Below are positions 752 through 34,052 of a stretch of 64,000 nucleotides of DNA, piece after piece. Below the pieces are notes generated by a model. The model did no database searches and was not told the DNA's origin. It saw nothing but the letters and a program-made list of their open reading frames with translations. The stretch is from NCBI RefSeq assembly GCF_058153355.1, contig NZ_CM177019.1, one strand, 5' to 3'. A program made the translations under genes and the position numbers. Position 1 is the stretch's first letter. The number at the start of each line of letters is the position of its first letter.

Positions 752-2308
752 ATGGAATTCTTAATGGACCCCTCAATTTGGGCGGGGCTACTCACGCTTG
801 TTGTTCTCGAAATTGTGCTGGGTATCGATAACCTGGTCTTCATCGCCATTCTTGCTGACAAACTGCCGCCAAAACAACGCGATAAAGCGCGTTTGCTGGG
901 ATTATCACTGGCGCTGATTATGCGTCTGGGGCTGCTGTCGCTGATTTCATGGATGGTCACGCTGACCAAACCGCTCTTTACCGTCATGGATTTCTCCTTC
1001 TCCGGACGCGACCTGATTATGTTGTTCGGGGGGATATTCTTGCTGTTCAAAGCAACAACCGAACTGCATGAACGGCTGGAAAACCGCGATCATGATTCCG
1101 GCCACGGTAAAGGCTACGCCAGTTTCTGGGTGGTCGTCACACAGATCGTCATCCTTGACGCCGTCTTCTCGTTGGATGCGGTGATTACTGCTGTAGGGAT
1201 GGTTAACCATCTACCGGTGATGATGGCTGCGGTGGTGATTGCGATGGCGGTTATGCTGCTGGCATCGAAACCGCTGACGCGATTTGTTAACCAGCATCCA
1301 ACGGTGGTGGTGCTCTGTCTGAGCTTCCTGTTAATGATAGGTCTGAGTCTGGTGGCAGAAGGTTTCGGTTTCCACATTCCGAAAGGTTACCTGTATGCCG
1401 CGATTGGCTTCTCGATCATCATCGAAGTGTTTAACCAAATTGCGCGTCGCAACTTTATTCGTCACCAGTCGACTTTGCCGCTGCGAGCGCGTACTGCCGA
1501 TGCCATCCTGCGTTTGATGGGCGGGAAACGTCAGGCCAATGTTCAGCACGATGCCGATAACCCGATACCGATGCCGATCCCGGAAGGCGCGTTTGCCGAA
1601 GAAGAACGTTACATGATTAACGGTGTATTGACGCTGGCGTCGCGTTCTCTGCGCGGGATCATGACGCCGCGCGGTGAAATAAGTTGGGTTGACGCTAATC
1701 TCGGGGTGGATGAAATCCGCGAGCAGCTGCTCTCTTCACCGCACAGTCTGTTCCCGGTATGTCGCGGTGAACTGGATGAAATTATCGGTATCGTGCGTGC
1801 CAAAGAACTGCTGGTGGCGCTGGAAGAGGGCGTTGATGTGGCGGCGATTGCTTCGGCGTCTCCGGCAATTATCGTTCCGGAAACCCTCGACCCGATCAAC
1901 CTGCTGGGCGTGCTGCGTCGTGCTCGCGGGAGCTTCGTTATCGTGACCAACGAGTTTGGTGTGGTACAAGGCCTGGTCACGCCGCTGGATGTGCTGGAAG
2001 CCATTGCGGGTGAATTCCCGGACGCTGACGAAACGCCGGAAATCATTACCGATGGTGACGGCTGGCTGGTAAAAGGCGGTACAGATTTGCATGCCTTGCA
2101 GCAGGCGCTTGATGTTGAGCACCTTGCCGATGACGATGATATCGCGACGGTCGCGGGCCTCGTGATCTCGGCAAATGGTCACATTCCCCGTGTGGGCGAT
2201 GTGATTGATGTAGGGCCACTGCATATCACCATCATTGAAGCCAATGATTATCGTGTTGATCTGGTTCGCATTGTTAAAGAGCAACCGGCGCACGATGAAG
2301 ATGAGTAA
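752..2308 (+). CDS. yoaE: UPF0053 inner membrane protein (TerC-like membrane domain + CBS/CorC domains)
   Basis: 518-aa [37 protein letters not shown]...; length and sequence match my recollection of YoaE; position next to manX. Confidence 0.92.
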
Positions 2309-6169: not shown

Positions 6170-7531
6170 TTATTTCTCCAGTTGCTTCAGGATACGATTA
6201 ACTTTATCAAAAGTTTCCTGATATTCCGCTTCTTCCTGGCTATCAGCGACAATACCACCCCCAGCGGAACAGTAAATTTGCCCGTTATACGCAGTCAGCG
6301 TGCGGATAGTAATGCTGGTATCCATGTTGCCGCAAAAGCTCAAATAGCCAATGCTGCCGCACCAGGCATTGCGTCGCTGCGGTTCCAGTTCGTCGATAAT
6401 TTCCATAGCCCGTACTTTCGGTGCTCCAGTTATTGAGCCACCAGGAAAAGCTGCGCGCAGCAGATCGCTGGTGTGTAACTGTTCTGGTAGTTGCGCCGTT
6501 ATGGTGCTGACCAGATGATGCACGGCAGGGAAGGGTTCCACCACGAACAGCTCTGGTACTTTTACCGAACCTGCTACGGCAACACGACCGATATCATTAC
6601 GCATTAAATCGACAATCATCAGATTTTCGGCACGATCTTTCGCTGAGTTCGCCAGTTTTTCTGCTTGTTTGCTATCTTCCTGAGGATCGGGCAGGCGTGG
6701 TAGCGTGCCTTTAATCGGGCGGGTCTGGATTTCACTATTATCACAAAGAATAAACCGCTCTGGCGAAAGGCTTAAAATCGCGCCCTGTTCAAGACGTAAA
6801 TAAGCGCTAAATGGCGCGCGGTTGGCCTGATTAAGCTGAAGGAATGCCTGCCATTCATCGCCAGAATAGGTCGCATGGAAACGCTGGGCGAGATTCACCT
6901 GATAGCAATCACCGCTGTGCAGATATTCCTGTACCTGGCGAAATTTTTCGCCGTACAGCTCGCGGGTCATATTGGATTGCCAGTCGGAAGTGAGCGTGAA
7001 ATCTTCCTGCGGCGAGAATTGCTGGCTTTCCAGCCAGGCCCGACGGGCATTGACATCATTATGACTCAGCAAAGAAACTGTTTGACGCTGGTGGTCGACA
7101 ATGAGCGCCCAGTCGTAGATACCCACAGCCATATCCGGCAGAACGATATCTTGCTGCGCAATTTCTGGCAGTGACTCAAAACGGCGGCCCAGATCGTAGC
7201 CAAACAACCCCAGCGCGCCGCCCTGAAATGGCAAATCTTCGTTATGCGCTGGGCGAATGTCTGCGCGATCCAGCACCTGCTGGAGCACCTGTAGCGGGTC
7301 ATCAGTGGTCGTTGTGCGTTTTTCGCTTTCACTAACAACGGTTTCTTTACCGAAAGTGGTTAAAGTGCAAATCGGCTCGGCGACCACAATATCAAAGCGG
7401 CTATATGGATGATCGGCATAGCCGGAGTGTAAAAGCATCGCCCACGGCAGGTGACTTAAGCGGGAGAAATAAAATTCAGCGGCGTCCTGACGCCAGGGTA
7501 AAGTAATCACAGCGGGAGATAACGTCTTCAT
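6170..7531 (-). CDS. pabB: aminodeoxychorismate synthase component I
   Basis: 453-aa [40 protein letters not shown]...; chorismate-binding fold motifs; synteny. Confidence 0.95.
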
Positions 7532-7604
7532 CAGTCCTGACTCTACTGGCTATGTGCCGGGTAGCATGAAATAATTAGCGCCAACAATTTAGCAGGAGTT
7601 AACA

Positions 7605-7784
7605 ATGTTTGCAGGTTTACCTTCACTCACCCATGAACAGCAGCAAAAAGCCGTTGAGCGGATCCAGGAACTGATGGCACAGGGGATGAGCAGCGGCCAG
7701 GCAATCGCGCTGGTGGCAGAAGAGTTGCGTGCTAACCATTCCGGTGAGCGGATTGTGGCGCGATTTGAGGATGAAGACGAGTAA
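7605..7784 (+). CDS. yoaH: UPF0181 small protein
   Basis: 59-aa ORF below the track cut-off: ATG at 7605, [62 protein letters not shown] at 7782-7784; SD-like AGGAG upstream. Confidence 0.85.
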
Positions 7785-7790
7785 CACAAA

Positions 7791-8243
7791 ATGATCCGTA
7801 TCGATTTCGTCACGGATGACGCCCTGTATCTTGATACGGATAGCCTCATCGGCTGGGATTTTTCCGGCATGAACTTACATCGTGCCATTTTTGACGGTAC
7901 GTGCCTGGACGGCGCGCGGTTTAATCATGCGCATCTGCGTAATATCAGTTTTATCAACGCGTCCCTGATTGGGGCCGACCTCTCGTCCAGCGCACTGATG
8001 TGTGCCTGGTTCAACAGCGCCGATCTGACCAATTGTAATTTTGCTCAGTCACGACCCATTGATGCTGATTTTAGGCATGCACGACTTTGTGGGGCAGATT
8101 TTACCGACACCGATTTAAGAGGTGCTAATTTTTCATCGACACATCTTCAGAATGTTTGTTTTAACGGGGCGCATTATGACAAACGAACTGTCTGGCCCGC
8201 AGAGTTTTATCCAAGGATTAACGGGGCTGTGTTGGTTGATTGA
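7791..8243 (+). CDS. pentapeptide-repeat protein (uncharacterized)
   Basis: 150-aa ORF with tandem A(D/N)LXX pentapeptide repeats (ADLSSSALMCAWFNSADLTNCNFAQS...GADFTDTDLRGANFSSTHLQNV); ATG only 6 bp after the yoaH stop, suggesting co-transcription. Confidence 0.7.
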   Translation: MIRIDFVTDDALYLDTDSLIGWDFSGMNLHRAIFDGTCLDGARFNHAHLRNISFINASLIGADLSSSALMCAWFNSADLTNCNFAQSRPIDADFRHARLCGADFTDTDLRGANFSSTHLQNVCFNGAHYDKRTVWPAEFYPRINGAVLVD

Positions 8244-8332
8244 ATTTGGCGGGGTTTATGATGGCAAGAAAAAGACGCTTTTATGTGGTCAACAAAAGCG
8301 CCCTGGTCAATTTTTGCTGATAGAGAATTAAC

Positions 8333-8632
8333 TCAAACCAGTGCTTTGAGTTCTTCCTGCATGTACGACGAAAAGTATTCTGGGTTTTTAATCACAATAC
8401 GTTCACCAGACTCCATTTTTTTTGCCCATCCCACCATTTTTTCCGTGAATCCAGGATTCCAGCCTTCCTGATCGGCTCGCGCAGTAATATCGGCGGAACT
8501 GGCGGGTACACCCAGGTCATGCAAATATTTAAATATTCCCTTCGCCGTACTTTCATTCATAGAACTTGGTGTTGATGCTGATACATCCATGGCACCAATA
8601 AAATCCAGAGCTTTATCTATTACTGCAGGCAT
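8333..8632 (-). CDS. yoaC: DUF1889-family protein
   Basis: ORF 8333-8656; start placed at ATG 8630-8632 (MPAVIDKALDFIGAMDVSASTPSSMNESTAKGIFKYLHDLG...) giving 99 aa, the length I recall for YoaC. Confidence 0.8.
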   Translation of the reverse strand: MPAVIDKALDFIGAMDVSASTPSSMNESTAKGIFKYLHDLGVPASSADITARADQEGWNPGFTEKMVGWAKKMESGERIVIKNPEYFSSYMQEELKALV

Positions 8633-8984
8633 ATTCTTTTCCTTAAAATTAACCATGTGAACAATAAGGCTATATATGACCTTAAATTGCGTCCAATATC
8701 AAAGGGATTATAACGATATCTCATTAGTTAACCTATTGACATTCAGGTGTTTTAAAGGTAGCAGGTCATAGTCTGTTATGTAGTGATGTACCGCAAATTA
8801 ACTGTAAATAGAAACGCTTCAGCCCAGGTTTTCAAGCAAGAAAGATAGCAAGAAGAAAACCAAAGTAGGCTAATCAGGGAGTTAGCATAATAATTTGATT
8901 TTGCTGATTAATATCAATTGTGTATAAATAACAACGAATCGATAAAAATAAAGAATAAATGACCTGAAGGGGTATTACACATCT

Positions 8985-9016
8985 AAAACACTGACCGTTT
9001 TATTCAAAGTCGGCCA
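8985..9016 (-). terminator. stem-loop downstream of yoaB (possible bidirectional terminator)
   Basis: cactgaccg...cggccagtg inverted repeat followed on the minus strand by a short U-run; sits about 60 bp 3' of the yoaB stop. Confidence 0.3.
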
Positions 9017-9072
9017 GTGTTTTCGATAAATTATTGTGCGACTTTTGCCGTGACAGAATTCTTTTTCTGAAA

Positions 9073-9417
9073 TTAAACCGCCGCGATAATCTTAATTTCA
9101 ACCTTGTACTTCGGGTTCATCAAACCCGCTTGTACCGTGCAGCGCACCGGCGCATGACCCGCGACAACCCAGGCATCCCACGCTTTATTCATCGCCGCGA
9201 AGTCGTTTTTATCAGCCAGGAAAATGGTGGCATCCAGAATGCTCGATTTATTGCTGCCCTGTTTTTCCAGCACGGCGTCAATCTGCGCCAGCGTGTTGGC
9301 GGTTTGCTCAAAGGCATTGGCGTCGAGGTTTTCCGGTACACCAGTGTAGTAGAGCGTGTTGTTGTGGATTACTACATCAGACCAGCGGGCTTCAGCATCG
9401 ATACGAACGATAGTCAT
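9073..9417 (-). CDS. yoaB: RidA/YjgF/TdcF-family protein
   Basis: ORF 9073-9465; start at ATG 9415-9417 (MTIVRIDAEARWSDVVIHNNTLYYTGVPENLDANAFEQTANTLAQIDAVLEKQGS...) giving 114 aa. Confidence 0.85.
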   Translation of the reverse strand: MTIVRIDAEARWSDVVIHNNTLYYTGVPENLDANAFEQTANTLAQIDAVLEKQGSNKSSILDATIFLADKNDFAAMNKAWDAWVVAGHAPVRCTVQAGLMNPKYKVEIKIIAAV

Positions 9418-9524
9418 CATTTTGTCCTCATTATCCTTCCATTTTCGTGCTGCAAAGACTGCCACAATGTGAGGTCGCCGTCACCACTTCAACTGGCGAA
9501 AGCGCCCTCATCCTGACATAATCC

Positions 9525-9540
9525 CTGTTCAAATCAACAG
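9525..9540 (+). promoter_or_regulatory. LexA (SOS) box immediately upstream of yoaA
   Basis: CTGTTCAAATCAACAG fits the CTGT-N8-ACAG LexA consensus, 9 bp upstream of the yoaA start; yoaA is a known SOS-regulon gene. Confidence 0.6.
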
Positions 9541-9548
9541 GGGGTAGT

Positions 9549-11459
9549 GTGACGGACGATTTTGCACCAGACGGTCAGCTGGCGAAAGCGATACCAGGCT
9601 TTAAGCCGCGAGAACCACAGCGTCAGATGGCGGTAGCCGTCGCCGGGGCGATAGATAAAAGCCAGCCGCTGGTGGTGGAGGCCGGAACCGGTACGGGCAA
9701 AACCTACGCTTACCTGGCCCCTGCGCTGCGGGCGAAAAAGAAAGTCATTATCTCGACCGGTTCAAAAGCGTTGCAGGATCAGCTCTACAGCCGCGATTTG
9801 CCAACGGTTTCAAAGGCGTTGAAATATACGGGCAACGTGGCGTTGCTGAAAGGGCGCTCTAACTACCTCTGCCTCGAACGTCTCGAACAGCAGGCGCTGG
9901 CGGGTGGCGATCTACCGGTACAAATTTTAAGCGATGTGATCCTGCTGCGCTCCTGGTCTAATCAAACAGTCGATGGTGATATCAGCACCTGCGTCAGCGT
10001 GGCGGAAGATTCACAGGCGTGGCCGCTGGTCACCAGCACCAACGACAACTGCCTTGGCAGCGACTGCCCGATGTATAAAGATTGCTTTGTGGTCAAAGCA
10101 CGCAAAAAAGCGATGGACGCCGATGTGGTGGTGGTAAACCATCATCTCTTTCTGGCGGATATGGTGGTGAAAGAGAGTGGATTTGGCGAACTGATCCCGG
10201 AAGCTGACGTCATGATCTTCGACGAAGCCCACCAGTTGCCGGATATCGCCAGCCAGTATTTTGGTCAGTCACTCTCCAGTCGACAACTGCTCGACCTGGC
10301 AAAAGACATCACCATCGCCTACCGCACCGAATTAAAAGACACCCAGCAGTTACAAAAGTGCGCCGACCGCCTTGCCCAGAGCGCGCAGGATTTTCGCCTG
10401 CAATTAGGTGAGCCAGGTTATCGTGGCAACCTGCGCGAACTGTTAGCTAATCCGCAAATTCAGCGGGCATTTTTACTGCTCGATGACACCCTTGAACTCT
10501 GTTATGACGTAGCGAAATTGTCGCTGGGGCGTTCCGCCTTGCTGGATGCAGCATTTGAACGCGCCACACTTTATCGTACGCGGCTTAAACGGCTGAAAGA
10601 GATCAATCAGCCGGGTTACAGCTACTGGTATGAATGCACTTCGCGCCATTTTACTCTGGCGCTCACGCCGCTTAGCGTGGCGGATAAATTCAAAGAGTTA
10701 ATGGCGCAAAAACCAGGTAGCTGGATCTTCACCTCAGCAACGCTGTCGGTGAACGACGATCTGCATCATTTTACCTCGCGGCTTGGGATAGAACAGGCGG
10801 AGTCGTTGCTATTGCCAAGCCCCTTTGATTACAGCCGCCAGGCATTACTCTGTGTGCCGCGCAACCTGCCGCAAACCAATCAACCGGGTTCCGCTCGGCA
10901 GCTGGCGGCAATGCTGCGACCGATCATCGAAGCCAATAATGGTCGTTGTTTCATGCTTTGTACCTCGCATGCCATGATGCGCGATCTGGCCGAGCAGTTC
11001 CGCGCCACCATGACGCTTCCCGTTTTATTGCAGGGAGAAACCAGCAAAGGCCAACTGTTGCAGCAGTTTGTCAGTGCCGGTAATGCGCTTCTTGTGGCAA
11101 CCAGCAGCTTCTGGGAAGGGGTGGATGTGCGTGGCGATACATTGTCATTGGTGATTATCGACAAGTTGCCGTTTACCTCACCGGATGATCCACTATTAAA
11201 AGCGCGCATGGAAGATTGCCGTTTGCGTGGAGGCGACCCGTTCGATGAAGTACAGCTGCCGGATGCGGTCATTACTCTCAAGCAGGGGGTAGGGCGACTG
11301 ATTCGCGACGCCGACGATCGAGGGGTTTTGGTGATTTGCGACAATCGGCTGGTGATGCGCCCTTACGGCGCGACGTTTCTCGCCAGTCTGCCGCCAGCGC
11401 CGCGCACCCGTGACATTGCCCGTGCGGTTCGTTTCCTTGCGATACCATCCTCCAGGTAA
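9549..11459 (+). CDS. yoaA: DinG-family ATP-dependent DNA helicase (SOS-inducible)
   Basis: 636-aa ORF with Walker A (AGTGTGKT), DEAH box (FDEAHQL) and Fe-S Cys cluster (CLGSDCPMYKDC); GTG start. Confidence 0.93.
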   Translation: MTDDFAPDGQLAKAIPGFKPREPQRQMAVAVAGAIDKSQPLVVEAGTGTGKTYAYLAPALRAKKKVIISTGSKALQDQLYSRDLPTVSKALKYTGNVALLKGRSNYLCLERLEQQALAGGDLPVQILSDVILLRSWSNQTVDGDISTCVSVAEDSQAWPLVTSTNDNCLGSDCPMYKDCFVVKARKKAMDADVVVVNHHLFLADMVVKESGFGELIPEADVMIFDEAHQLPDIASQYFGQSLSSRQLLDLAKDITIAYRTELKDTQQLQKCADRLAQSAQDFRLQLGEPGYRGNLRELLANPQIQRAFLLLDDTLELCYDVAKLSLGRSALLDAAFERATLYRTRLKRLKEINQPGYSYWYECTSRHFTLALTPLSVADKFKELMAQKPGSWIFTSATLSVNDDLHHFTSRLGIEQAESLLLPSPFDYSRQALLCVPRNLPQTNQPGSARQLAAMLRPIIEANNGRCFMLCTSHAMMRDLAEQFRATMTLPVLLQGETSKGQLLQQFVSAGNALLVATSSFWEGVDVRGDTLSLVIIDKLPFTSPDDPLLKARMEDCRLRGGDPFDEVQLPDAVITLKQGVGRLIRDADDRGVLVICDNRLVMRPYGATFLASLPPAPRTRDIARAVRFLAIPSSR

Positions 11460-31134: not shown

Positions 31135-32610
31135 TTAAATATGATGAATAATCACTTTGTTGCCCCCCTCGCTTTTCGCTTCGCGTAAGGCTTTATCTGC
31201 TTCCGTCATGACAAGCGAGATATTACGCGTGTCACCCGTTGAAAAAACCGTGCCAATACTGATGGTCATTTGTTCAGGAACATCATATCTGTTACTAAAA
31301 CCGGTCAGGAGTTCGACATTTTTACGCATACGTTCCGCAATGATTTTTGCCTGGGCACTATTGAGTTCGGTAAATAGCAAGCCAAACACCTCACCCTCCA
31401 GTCGCGCTAAAATATCATCGGGGCGGATGCTTTGCTGGATAATATCGACAATTGAAACCAGCACTTTATCACCCACACGATGTCCCCATTGGGCATTGAT
31501 GCGCTTGAACTGATTAATATCAACCAGCATGACACAAAAGTCCTTAACAACAGGTCGCGACAATAATGACTCTACGCTGTTGAAAAAGTAGCGCCGATTA
31601 TAAATATTGGTCAGTACATCATGAACTGCCAGTTTGCTGGAGAGTTGCAGTTCCTGAAAAATGTTATAAATCAGAAAAGACACAACAAACAGTTTACTGG
31701 AAACTTCAATCCCGCGACTGATATACCAGATGGTGTAATTATACTCATCCAGAGTCAGTAGAAGTAAGTTGCAGCATAGCGATGCCAGACATAATAATGC
31801 TATTAACGGCCATAGTTCGCTGGCTAATCGTGTACGCATGATAATAAAGAACAGTAAAAATGCCCACAAACAAACCAATATTTTTGTATAGTTGATTCCC
31901 CAGGTCGCAGTATGGTTGTCCGGACAGTAATCGACGACATACAAAGAATAGTCAGCGTTATAACTGCTCAGATTGTGTGCCAGAAGGGGGAAAACTAAAA
32001 AAGGAATCAGCGCCAGCAACAGAATGCCAGTTTTTTTCTTATTGTTGTCAAGGATGTTGTCTTTCCCATAACAAAAGAGCGCCAGCGAGGTTAAACAAAT
32101 GAAACTGAGTTGGCGGAAAATATAGAAAATAGAAACATCATTCGACTTTGTCTGGATCAGTGTACTGCCGTTGATTGGTTTATGGATAATTACAATGGTT
32201 TCAACTAAATAGATAAGGCCACTTAAAAATGCAAGGCTTAAAATGAGTGTTGGTAAAATTTGTTTGTTAGTGAAATACTTCATTAACATGAAAAGAAAAA
32301 TGACGGCGTTAAGGAAAAACAAAGCCACAACAACCATCAGGTAATTCATCTGTGGAATGAGTTTTACATTCGTGTTTTCGTTATATAAGGTGGTGATGCA
32401 AAATAAAATTAACGTCAGCAATAAGCTGAAAATAAAAAAGCCTTGAGCTTTTAATTTTTGTGTACCCATAGAAACCATAAAAAGGAGAGCAATGTGAGTG
32501 CTGGATTTTATTGATGGCAGAGATATATGGTTTTGACCAGGATCAATTTTCGTTGACGATAAAAAATAATTAAAGAATAACCCCAGGGAAATACGTGTTG
32601 ACCGAATCAT
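31135..32610 (-). CDS. dgcI: GGDEF-domain protein with degenerate active-site motif (EGEVF)
   Basis: 491-aa ORF, multi-TM N-terminus plus GGDEF domain in which the GG(D/E)EF motif reads EGEVF (ARLEGEVFGLLF); paralog of the adjacent dgcJ. Confidence 0.88.
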   Translation of the reverse strand: MIRSTRISLGLFFNYFLSSTKIDPGQNHISLPSIKSSTHIALLFMVSMGTQKLKAQGFFIFSLLLTLILFCITTLYNENTNVKLIPQMNYLMVVVALFFLNAVIFLFMLMKYFTNKQILPTLILSLAFLSGLIYLVETIVIIHKPINGSTLIQTKSNDVSIFYIFRQLSFICLTSLALFCYGKDNILDNNKKKTGILLLALIPFLVFPLLAHNLSSYNADYSLYVVDYCPDNHTATWGINYTKILVCLWAFLLFFIIMRTRLASELWPLIALLCLASLCCNLLLLTLDEYNYTIWYISRGIEVSSKLFVVSFLIYNIFQELQLSSKLAVHDVLTNIYNRRYFFNSVESLLSRPVVKDFCVMLVDINQFKRINAQWGHRVGDKVLVSIVDIIQQSIRPDDILARLEGEVFGLLFTELNSAQAKIIAERMRKNVELLTGFSNRYDVPEQMTISIGTVFSTGDTRNISLVMTEADKALREAKSEGGNKVIIHHI

Positions 32611-32756
32611 TTTTCCGAATGATTGTTTTCTGAAACTAAATTGTGTAAAGGTTATGCTGTCATATTTAAAGCGATTGTAAGCTAATGTATGTAATAAATG
32701 AGATAATTTACAGTGAGCTAAAAATCAGCCAGGCGATAATGACCCGGCTGACAGTT

Positions 32757-34052
<1,296 letters not shown>

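Follow-up and report, generated by a model that had tools for sequence, protein, structure and literature searches.

The AT-rich spacer between yoaB and yoaC in Escherichia coli: a probable regulatory region combining the yoaB 3' hairpin with the yoaC promoter and leader

Why two small genes of Escherichia coli, yoaB and yoaC, should be separated by 440 bp of markedly AT-rich DNA was the question raised by positions 8633-9072 of the window, that is, of the 64,000-nucleotide stretch of DNA that was analysed as a whole. An earlier note had regarded the spacer as large for a divergent promoter region and had proposed that it might host an unannotated sRNA, a small protein or a nucleoid-protein binding region. 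Gene boundaries were set using the ORFs of the window and the RefSeq annotation of E. coli 2013C-4282 (99.5% identical). The upstream gene, yoaB, encodes a RidA-family protein (98% amino-acid identity to K-12 YoaB) and occupies 9073..9417 on the minus strand, with its stop codon at 9075..9073; yoaC, the gene served by the spacer, encodes a 99-aa DUF1889 protein and occupies 8333..8632, likewise on the minus strand. Since yoaB and yoaC are co-directional, the spacer is not a divergent promoter region, and that part of the earlier description was wrong; the divergent partner of yoaB is yoaA (9549..11459, plus strand). Read along the minus strand, the spacer presents in turn the yoaB stop codon, the yoaB 3' region and the yoaC 5' region, and it is regarded, with good but not full confidence, as an intergenic regulatory region between two separately transcribed genes, made up of the yoaB 3' hairpin and the promoter and leader of yoaC.

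The descriptive part of the note largely held. The GC content of the spacer is 0.33 against 0.50 for the window, and equal AT-richness was reached by only 0.33% of the 440-bp windows when the 64 kb were scanned; the spacer is indeed large, the longest of the 52 gaps that separate genes in the window's first 50 kb. No ORF of at least 60 aa lies within it, the longest internal ORFs being 34 and 31 aa. AT-richness well above background, the property looked for in an H-NS or Fis region, was thus found, and no mention of H-NS together with yoaC was found in the literature searched. The sole other stretch of the window that is equally AT-rich (440-bp windows with GC ≤0.36) was located at about 31971-32900, mostly within the diguanylate cyclase gene cdgI (31147-32622), from where it crosses the gap between cdgI and yeaH and enters the first part of yeaH.

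Downstream of the yoaB stop codon, a 3' untranslated region read from the sequence (9024..9072, minus strand), in which the window-type and K-12-type alleles start to diverge, leads into a conserved stem-loop at 8985..9023 on the same strand. This is the terminator-like hairpin placed by the earlier note at 8985-9016; it is real and extends to 9023. The structure was recovered by folding, as an inverted repeat with arms at 8981-8997 and 9011-9027, and by RNAalifold; it begins 49 nt past the stop codon and consists of a 13-bp stem, with a 9-bp conserved core, and a 13-nt loop. Folding of 113 nt around the hairpin gave z = -3.1, and across seven Escherichia spacers nine consensus pairs were kept, with compensatory double changes at three of the nine. 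In K-12, Term-seq (Adams et al. 2021, PMC7815308) placed a 3' end at 1893787 (plus strand) in two data sets, about 4 nt past the orthologous stem and 76 nt after the K-12 yoaB stop codon. In the K-12 orthologue the yoaB mRNA has its 3' end at the hairpin, and we infer the same for the window allele, in which the yoaB transcript would end at this stem-loop some 50-90 nt past the stop codon.

How the end is formed may differ between alleles. UUUUAG comes after the stem on the minus strand, and an A-tract on the 5' side of the stem makes the hairpin terminator-like on the plus strand too. Given the short U-tract that follows the stem in the window sequence (UUUUAGAUGU), whose four U residues can pair in part with the 5' A-tract, the hairpin probably acts as an intrinsic terminator in the window allele. 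The K-12 (AGAAUAAG) and E. albertii sequences have no U-tract after the hairpin, so that Rho-dependent termination followed by trimming may generate the 3' end there instead of intrinsic termination. Intrinsic terminators and 3'-stabilising stem-loops are resembled in the stable stem soon after a stop codon, the UUUU present here, the covariation and the mapped orthologous 3' end; the hairpin departs from intrinsic terminators in its long loop (13 nt) and in a short U-tract that K-12 and E. albertii do not share. A consensus terminator scan did not call it, the loop being longer than 8 nt.

A further terminator-like hairpin was noted at 8272-8304, between yoaC and a convergent pentapeptide-repeat gene. 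In K-12, the corresponding hairpin between yoaC and yoaH has Term-seq 3' ends on both strands, at 1894457 (minus) and 1894498 (plus) (PMC7815308), and is therefore a bidirectional terminator.

Beside the yoaB hairpin, within the K-12 spacer, a weak TSS supported by 12 reads was reported by Kim et al. 2012 (PMC3415461) at 1891768 (minus strand, NC_000913.2), where it points into yoaB in antisense orientation and was assigned to yoaA with a 509-nt leader. The orthologous position in the window is about 9020-9040 (plus strand). As the K-12 -10 element TATTAT reads TGTTTT in the window, this antisense start is probably not conserved there.

The comparison of the seven Escherichia spacers divided the remainder of the region into two parts that evolve very differently. 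The K-12 yoaB-yoaC region (NC_000913.3 1893712-1894132) lies at the orthologous position, is 421 bp long as against 440 bp, and has co-directional flanks, the hairpin after yoaB, and a proximal 170 bp that is about 90% identical and contains the TSS, the TATAAT element and the Shine-Dalgarno sequence. It differs in its distal ~290 bp, which are about 60-65% identical and carry indels, and in that the proposed YhaJ box and the antisense -10 of K-12 are not conserved in the window; unlike the K-12 allele, the window-type allele is then accompanied by the extra pentapeptide-repeat gene.

The variable DNA next to the hairpin was delimited on the seven-spacer alignment as 8801..8984 (GC 0.32, assigned to neither strand). 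Its identity to K-12 is 0.59-0.67, with indels, and that of the four-fold sites of yoaC is 0.64; within the window-type group the corresponding values are 0.83-0.92 and 0.87-0.89. Because the distal identity matches that of the four-fold sites, this stretch appears to be close to unconstrained and to change at a roughly neutral rate. In the Escherichia lineage represented by MOD1-EC7003 the whole spacer is 271 bp long. Partial conservation was seen for a short block, TGATTAGC..CTCTGGTTT, and searches of the yoaC upstream regions of other genera and of the rest of the window gave no homologue of the distal spacer beyond the proximal ~30-90 bp. These ~185 bp would thus be fast-evolving AT-rich DNA with no conserved sequence, structure or ORF, and the distal DNA appears not to encode a product.

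The proposal of an unannotated sRNA found no support in these data. A search of Rfam over 7400-9700 with E values up to 10 returned only a chance-level match to IS128 (score 14.4 bits, gathering score 80, E = 8.9). In K-12, the post-hairpin end is the only 3' end that Term-seq (PMC7815308) gives inside the gap, after which none is listed until the end of yoaC, and the current K-12 RefSeq annotation has nothing in the spacer. Neither a family match nor conserved sequence and structure with a promoter and terminator of its own was found, as would be looked for in an sRNA gene. That the distal stretch is nevertheless an independent small RNA, or else holds a far-upstream yoaC promoter or a YhaJ-dependent long leader, is considered very unlikely. 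In its favour are the position of the YhaJ peak described below, about 290 bp from the yoaC ATG and too distant for classical LysR activation at the proximal promoters, the partly conserved distal block, and one promoter-like site in the window allele, TTGATA-16-AATTAT (8917..8890, minus strand). The last is absent from K-12 and E. whittamii, and sites of this kind do not exceed shuffled expectation; a distal part that diverges at the synonymous rate, with indels, and the lack of an Rfam match, an additional K-12 Term-seq 3' end or a K-12 annotation likewise argue against such a transcript.

The ~170 bp adjoining yoaC behave in the opposite way, their identity to K-12 being about 0.9 against 0.64 at the yoaC four-fold sites. 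Conservation above the neutral rate was thus found in the yoaC promoter region among the seven Escherichia spacers, and for its core across three genera. An upstream promoter region conserved in Escherichia was assigned to 8716..8800 (minus strand) on the basis of this conservation and of the TSS mapped in K-12, and a yoaC-proximal core to 8633..8715 (minus strand) on the basis of cross-genus conservation. The yoaC-proximal part includes the conserved block CTGCTACCTTTAAAAyACCTGAATGTCAAyAGGTTAAC. The K-12 yoaC TSS, for which a single study (Kim et al. 2012, PMC3415461) gives 21 reads at 1892041 (plus strand, NC_000913.2), corresponds to -116 from the current ATG and to position 8748 of the window, inside the conserved block CTGCTACCTTTAAAACA. 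A -10-like TACCTT (8760..8755, minus strand) lies ahead of this position, and a palindrome-like element, CCTGAATGTCAATAGG, which occurs once in the window, lies at 8747..8732 (minus strand).

Closer to yoaC, a perfect -10-like TATAAT (8712..8707, minus strand) lies within TTATAATCCCTTTGAT, which is common to six of the seven Escherichia spacers; E. whittamii has GATAAT instead, with A2 and T6 retained. From its conservation across genera, this element is put forward as a second, putative yoaC -10. Both the TACCTT and the TATAAT candidate have poor -35 hexamers (~2-3 of 6), and neither was called by a consensus promoter scan. That scan, run over 8200-9600, returned just two sites, each of them on the minus strand; shuffled sequences gave 3.5 ± 1.7. 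Promoter-like hexamers had been described on both strands, and the TTGACA cited as an example does exist at 8736-8741, as the opposite strand of the palindrome-like element; there is no enrichment of such sites, and a reading of the sequence gave no acceptable -10 hexamer 16-18 bp downstream of the plus-strand TTGACA.

Translation of yoaC would be served by the Shine-Dalgarno sequence AAGGA at 8644..8640 (minus strand), followed by the ATG at 8632. The alignment indicates that this ATG is the true start; an in-frame ATG at 8656 is out of frame in E. albertii and Pseudocitrobacter owing to a 1-nt deletion. The ~170 bp would accordingly hold one or two promoters, a leader of about 70-116 nt and a ribosome-binding site. 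The published Cappable-seq table has no coordinate within range of the K-12 spacer. A structured leader, or a switch that sequesters the Shine-Dalgarno sequence (AAGG/CCUU/AAGG), was considered and rejected, the folds being no better than those of shuffled sequences (z = -0.64 and +0.20) and a 12-sequence alignment showing no covariation. For designers of yoaC reporters, the analysis marks out the ~170 bp that are under constraint.

The conserved part of the spacer also contains the best candidate for a small protein, a 34-aa ORF at 8724..8620 that overlaps the yoaC start. A coding role for this or any other ORF of the spacer, whether as small protein or as leader peptide, is held to be extremely improbable. 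The ORF lies in the conserved block and is intact in four of the six other Escherichia spacers; it is frameshifted in E. albertii and MOD1-EC7003, and in the alignment with K-12 all eight codon differences are non-synonymous, which indicates that its conservation reflects the promoter and leader and not coding. None of the 13 ORFs of at least 10 codons is intact in all seven Escherichia spacers, so that no intact ORF under purifying selection in relatives was found. A ribosome-profiling study of sORFs (Stringer 2021) has no entry at K-12 1893700-1894099, which covers most but not all of the gap. The suggestion of a small protein was dropped on these grounds.

What the long upstream DNA does for yoaC is indicated by regulator-binding data from the orthologous region. 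The gene is listed among known YhaJ-regulated genes by Connolly et al. 2019 (PMC6765310), and the ChIP-seq peaks for YhaJ in the yoaB-yoaC intergenic region are centred at -305 in EHEC (peak-shape scores 10.4 and 21.1), where the peak is among the strongest, and at 283 in UPEC (PMC6765310). The YhaJ motif proposed at yoaC in the same study is TTATAGATAAAATTGA (PMC6765310). It lies at -294..-279 in K-12, in the fast-evolving distal part, the peak centres being ~283-305 bp from the yoaC start. At yoaC in K-12, ChIP-exo showed YeiE bound upstream of the site occupied by RNA polymerase (Gao et al. 2018, PMC6237786), and this served in that paper as the example of an upstream, commonly activating binding mode (PMC6237786). 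The expression of yoaC in E. coli would thus depend on LysR-type activators, YhaJ bound about 290 bp upstream of the ATG (EHEC, UPEC) and YeiE (K-12), and the AT-rich upstream DNA would most likely offer such regulators, and possibly nucleoid proteins too, a binding platform under loose constraint. Of the suggested nucleoid-protein binding region, what stands is a protein-binding regulatory region; the published occupants are YhaJ and YeiE, both of the LysR type. Deletion of yoaC is reported to sensitise E. coli to boric acid.

A position-weight matrix for YhaJ was built from 14 other published YhaJ sites and applied to the seven spacers. The training sites scored 1.9-17.8 bits, 13 of them above 10, and the K-12 yoaC box scored 4.0 bits; no match above shuffled expectation was obtained in any of the seven spacers, the best spacer score (5.4 bits) being reached by 78% of shuffles, and a T-N11-A box with the TCA-N7-TGA dyad was not found in the window spacer. 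With no significant match in any spacer, conservation of YhaJ binding cannot be judged from the sequence. Like the YhaJ promoters yqjF, yhaK, yhhW and ybiJ, yoaC is a YhaJ target with upstream ChIP-seq peaks in EHEC and UPEC, and the -35 hexamers of its candidate core promoters are poor, a feature expected of promoters that depend on an activator. It differs from these canonical targets, which have a clear TCA-N7-TGA box, mostly of 14-18 bits, near the promoter, in that its site, some 290 bp from the ATG, matches only weakly (4 bits), with no significant match in the window allele. The peak lies ~170-210 bp upstream of either candidate yoaC promoter, a long distance for a LysR activator of the classical type. 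All transcript ends and ChIP peaks were mapped in K-12, EHEC or UPEC, in which the distal spacer is only ~60-65% identical to that of the window allele; YhaJ and YeiE are presumed by analogy to bind the divergent allele as well.

Genome-wide maps from K-12, EHEC and UPEC thus already cover the orthologue with respect to the 3' end, the TSS, YhaJ and YeiE. The spacer is a conventional but long terminator-plus-promoter spacer of an activator-dependent orphan gene, mildly unusual only in its rare haplotype and in the far-upstream position of the YhaJ peak. The modest practical value of the analysis lies in correcting the assumed gene orientation, in marking out the constrained DNA next to yoaC, a YhaJ target of unknown function, and in drawing attention to the rare haplotype.

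Outside Escherichia, yoaC adjoins fis-dusB in Buttiauxella and fimbrial genes in Pseudocitrobacter, in both cases without yoaB. Across Buttiauxella, Pseudocitrobacter and Escherichia the alignable part is confined to ~90 bp that begin at the -10-like element and end at the ATG; since this block aligns in unrelated genomic contexts, it belongs to yoaC itself. The upstream gaps in the other two genera are also AT-rich, with 344 bp of GC 0.395 in Buttiauxella (locus L008, 2657-3000) and 444 bp of GC 0.36 in Pseudocitrobacter (locus L012, 2557-3000), and in most loci of the three genera the gap measures 344-470 bp, the 271 bp of one Escherichia lineage excepted. E. coli PT62 gained mcr-1 when Tn6330 and IS1 inserted between yoaB and yoaC (PMC9045152), from which it follows that the AT-rich spacer tolerates large insertions and can attract them.

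These observations bear on a further explanation, by which the distal stretch is inert filler, either a relic of a mobile yoaC cassette that inserted downstream of yoaB or what is left of a decayed gene, and regulators are drawn to it only incidentally, by its AT-richness. Divergence at the neutral rate is as this would predict, the presence of yoaC in three unrelated contexts in three genera, each time with a long AT-rich upstream gap, agrees with it, the 271-bp spacer shows that much of the DNA is dispensable, and a Tn6330/IS1 insertion was tolerated in one isolate. It is nevertheless judged unlikely: a K-12-type spacer of full length and 95-100% identity is kept in 5,357 of 5,426 complete E. 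coli genomes, the EHEC YhaJ peak there is among the strongest, and the recurrence of a long AT-rich upstream region in three genera could equally indicate function.

The same recurrence allows a functional version of the cassette, which is distinctly unlikely, in which yoaC is a small mobile cassette that always brings a long AT-rich upstream 'landing pad' and is wired by the host into the YhaJ and YeiE regulons, perhaps by counter-silencing of H-NS at a far-upstream position, or else by way of an unmapped distal promoter or long leader. The sequence of the pad would drift freely, and its length and AT content would be retained. If this were true, the rare haplotype of the window would offer a natural experiment on whether regulation persists once the pad has been replaced.

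An imperfect direct repeat of 22 nt (18/22 matches) was also noted at the exact ends of the spacer (8633-8654 and 9058-9079), a level reached in 1.3% of dinucleotide shuffles and seen only in the window-type allele. Its interpretation as an insertion footprint was judged unlikely, the copy on the yoaC side being the Shine-Dalgarno region shared across genera, that on the yoaB side spanning the stop codon and so being partly coding, and K-12 having no such repeat.

The window-type spacer was found in three of the 5,426 complete E. coli genomes, and a sliding-window comparison showed the window to be a mosaic, with pabB and yoaB 97-99% identical to K-12 and the segment from about 7700 to 9100, comprising the spacer, yoaC and the pentapeptide gene, closest to Escherichia sp. 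E1V33 (cryptic clade; 90-99%) and E. whittamii. The pattern suggests an introgressed or anciently retained haplotype, one that resembles those of cryptic Escherichia clades and in which different sequence stands in place of the far-upstream DNA bound by regulators. The pentapeptide-repeat protein gene itself (7791-8243, plus strand, 150 aa) lies between yoaH and yoaC; it is absent from K-12 and E. albertii, is present as remnants in two Escherichia lineages, and is intact in E. whittamii, Escherichia sp. E1V33 and a few E. coli. Elsewhere in the window, yoaE (752-2307, plus strand) is annotated as a frameshifted pseudogene in the near-identical strain 2013C-4282.
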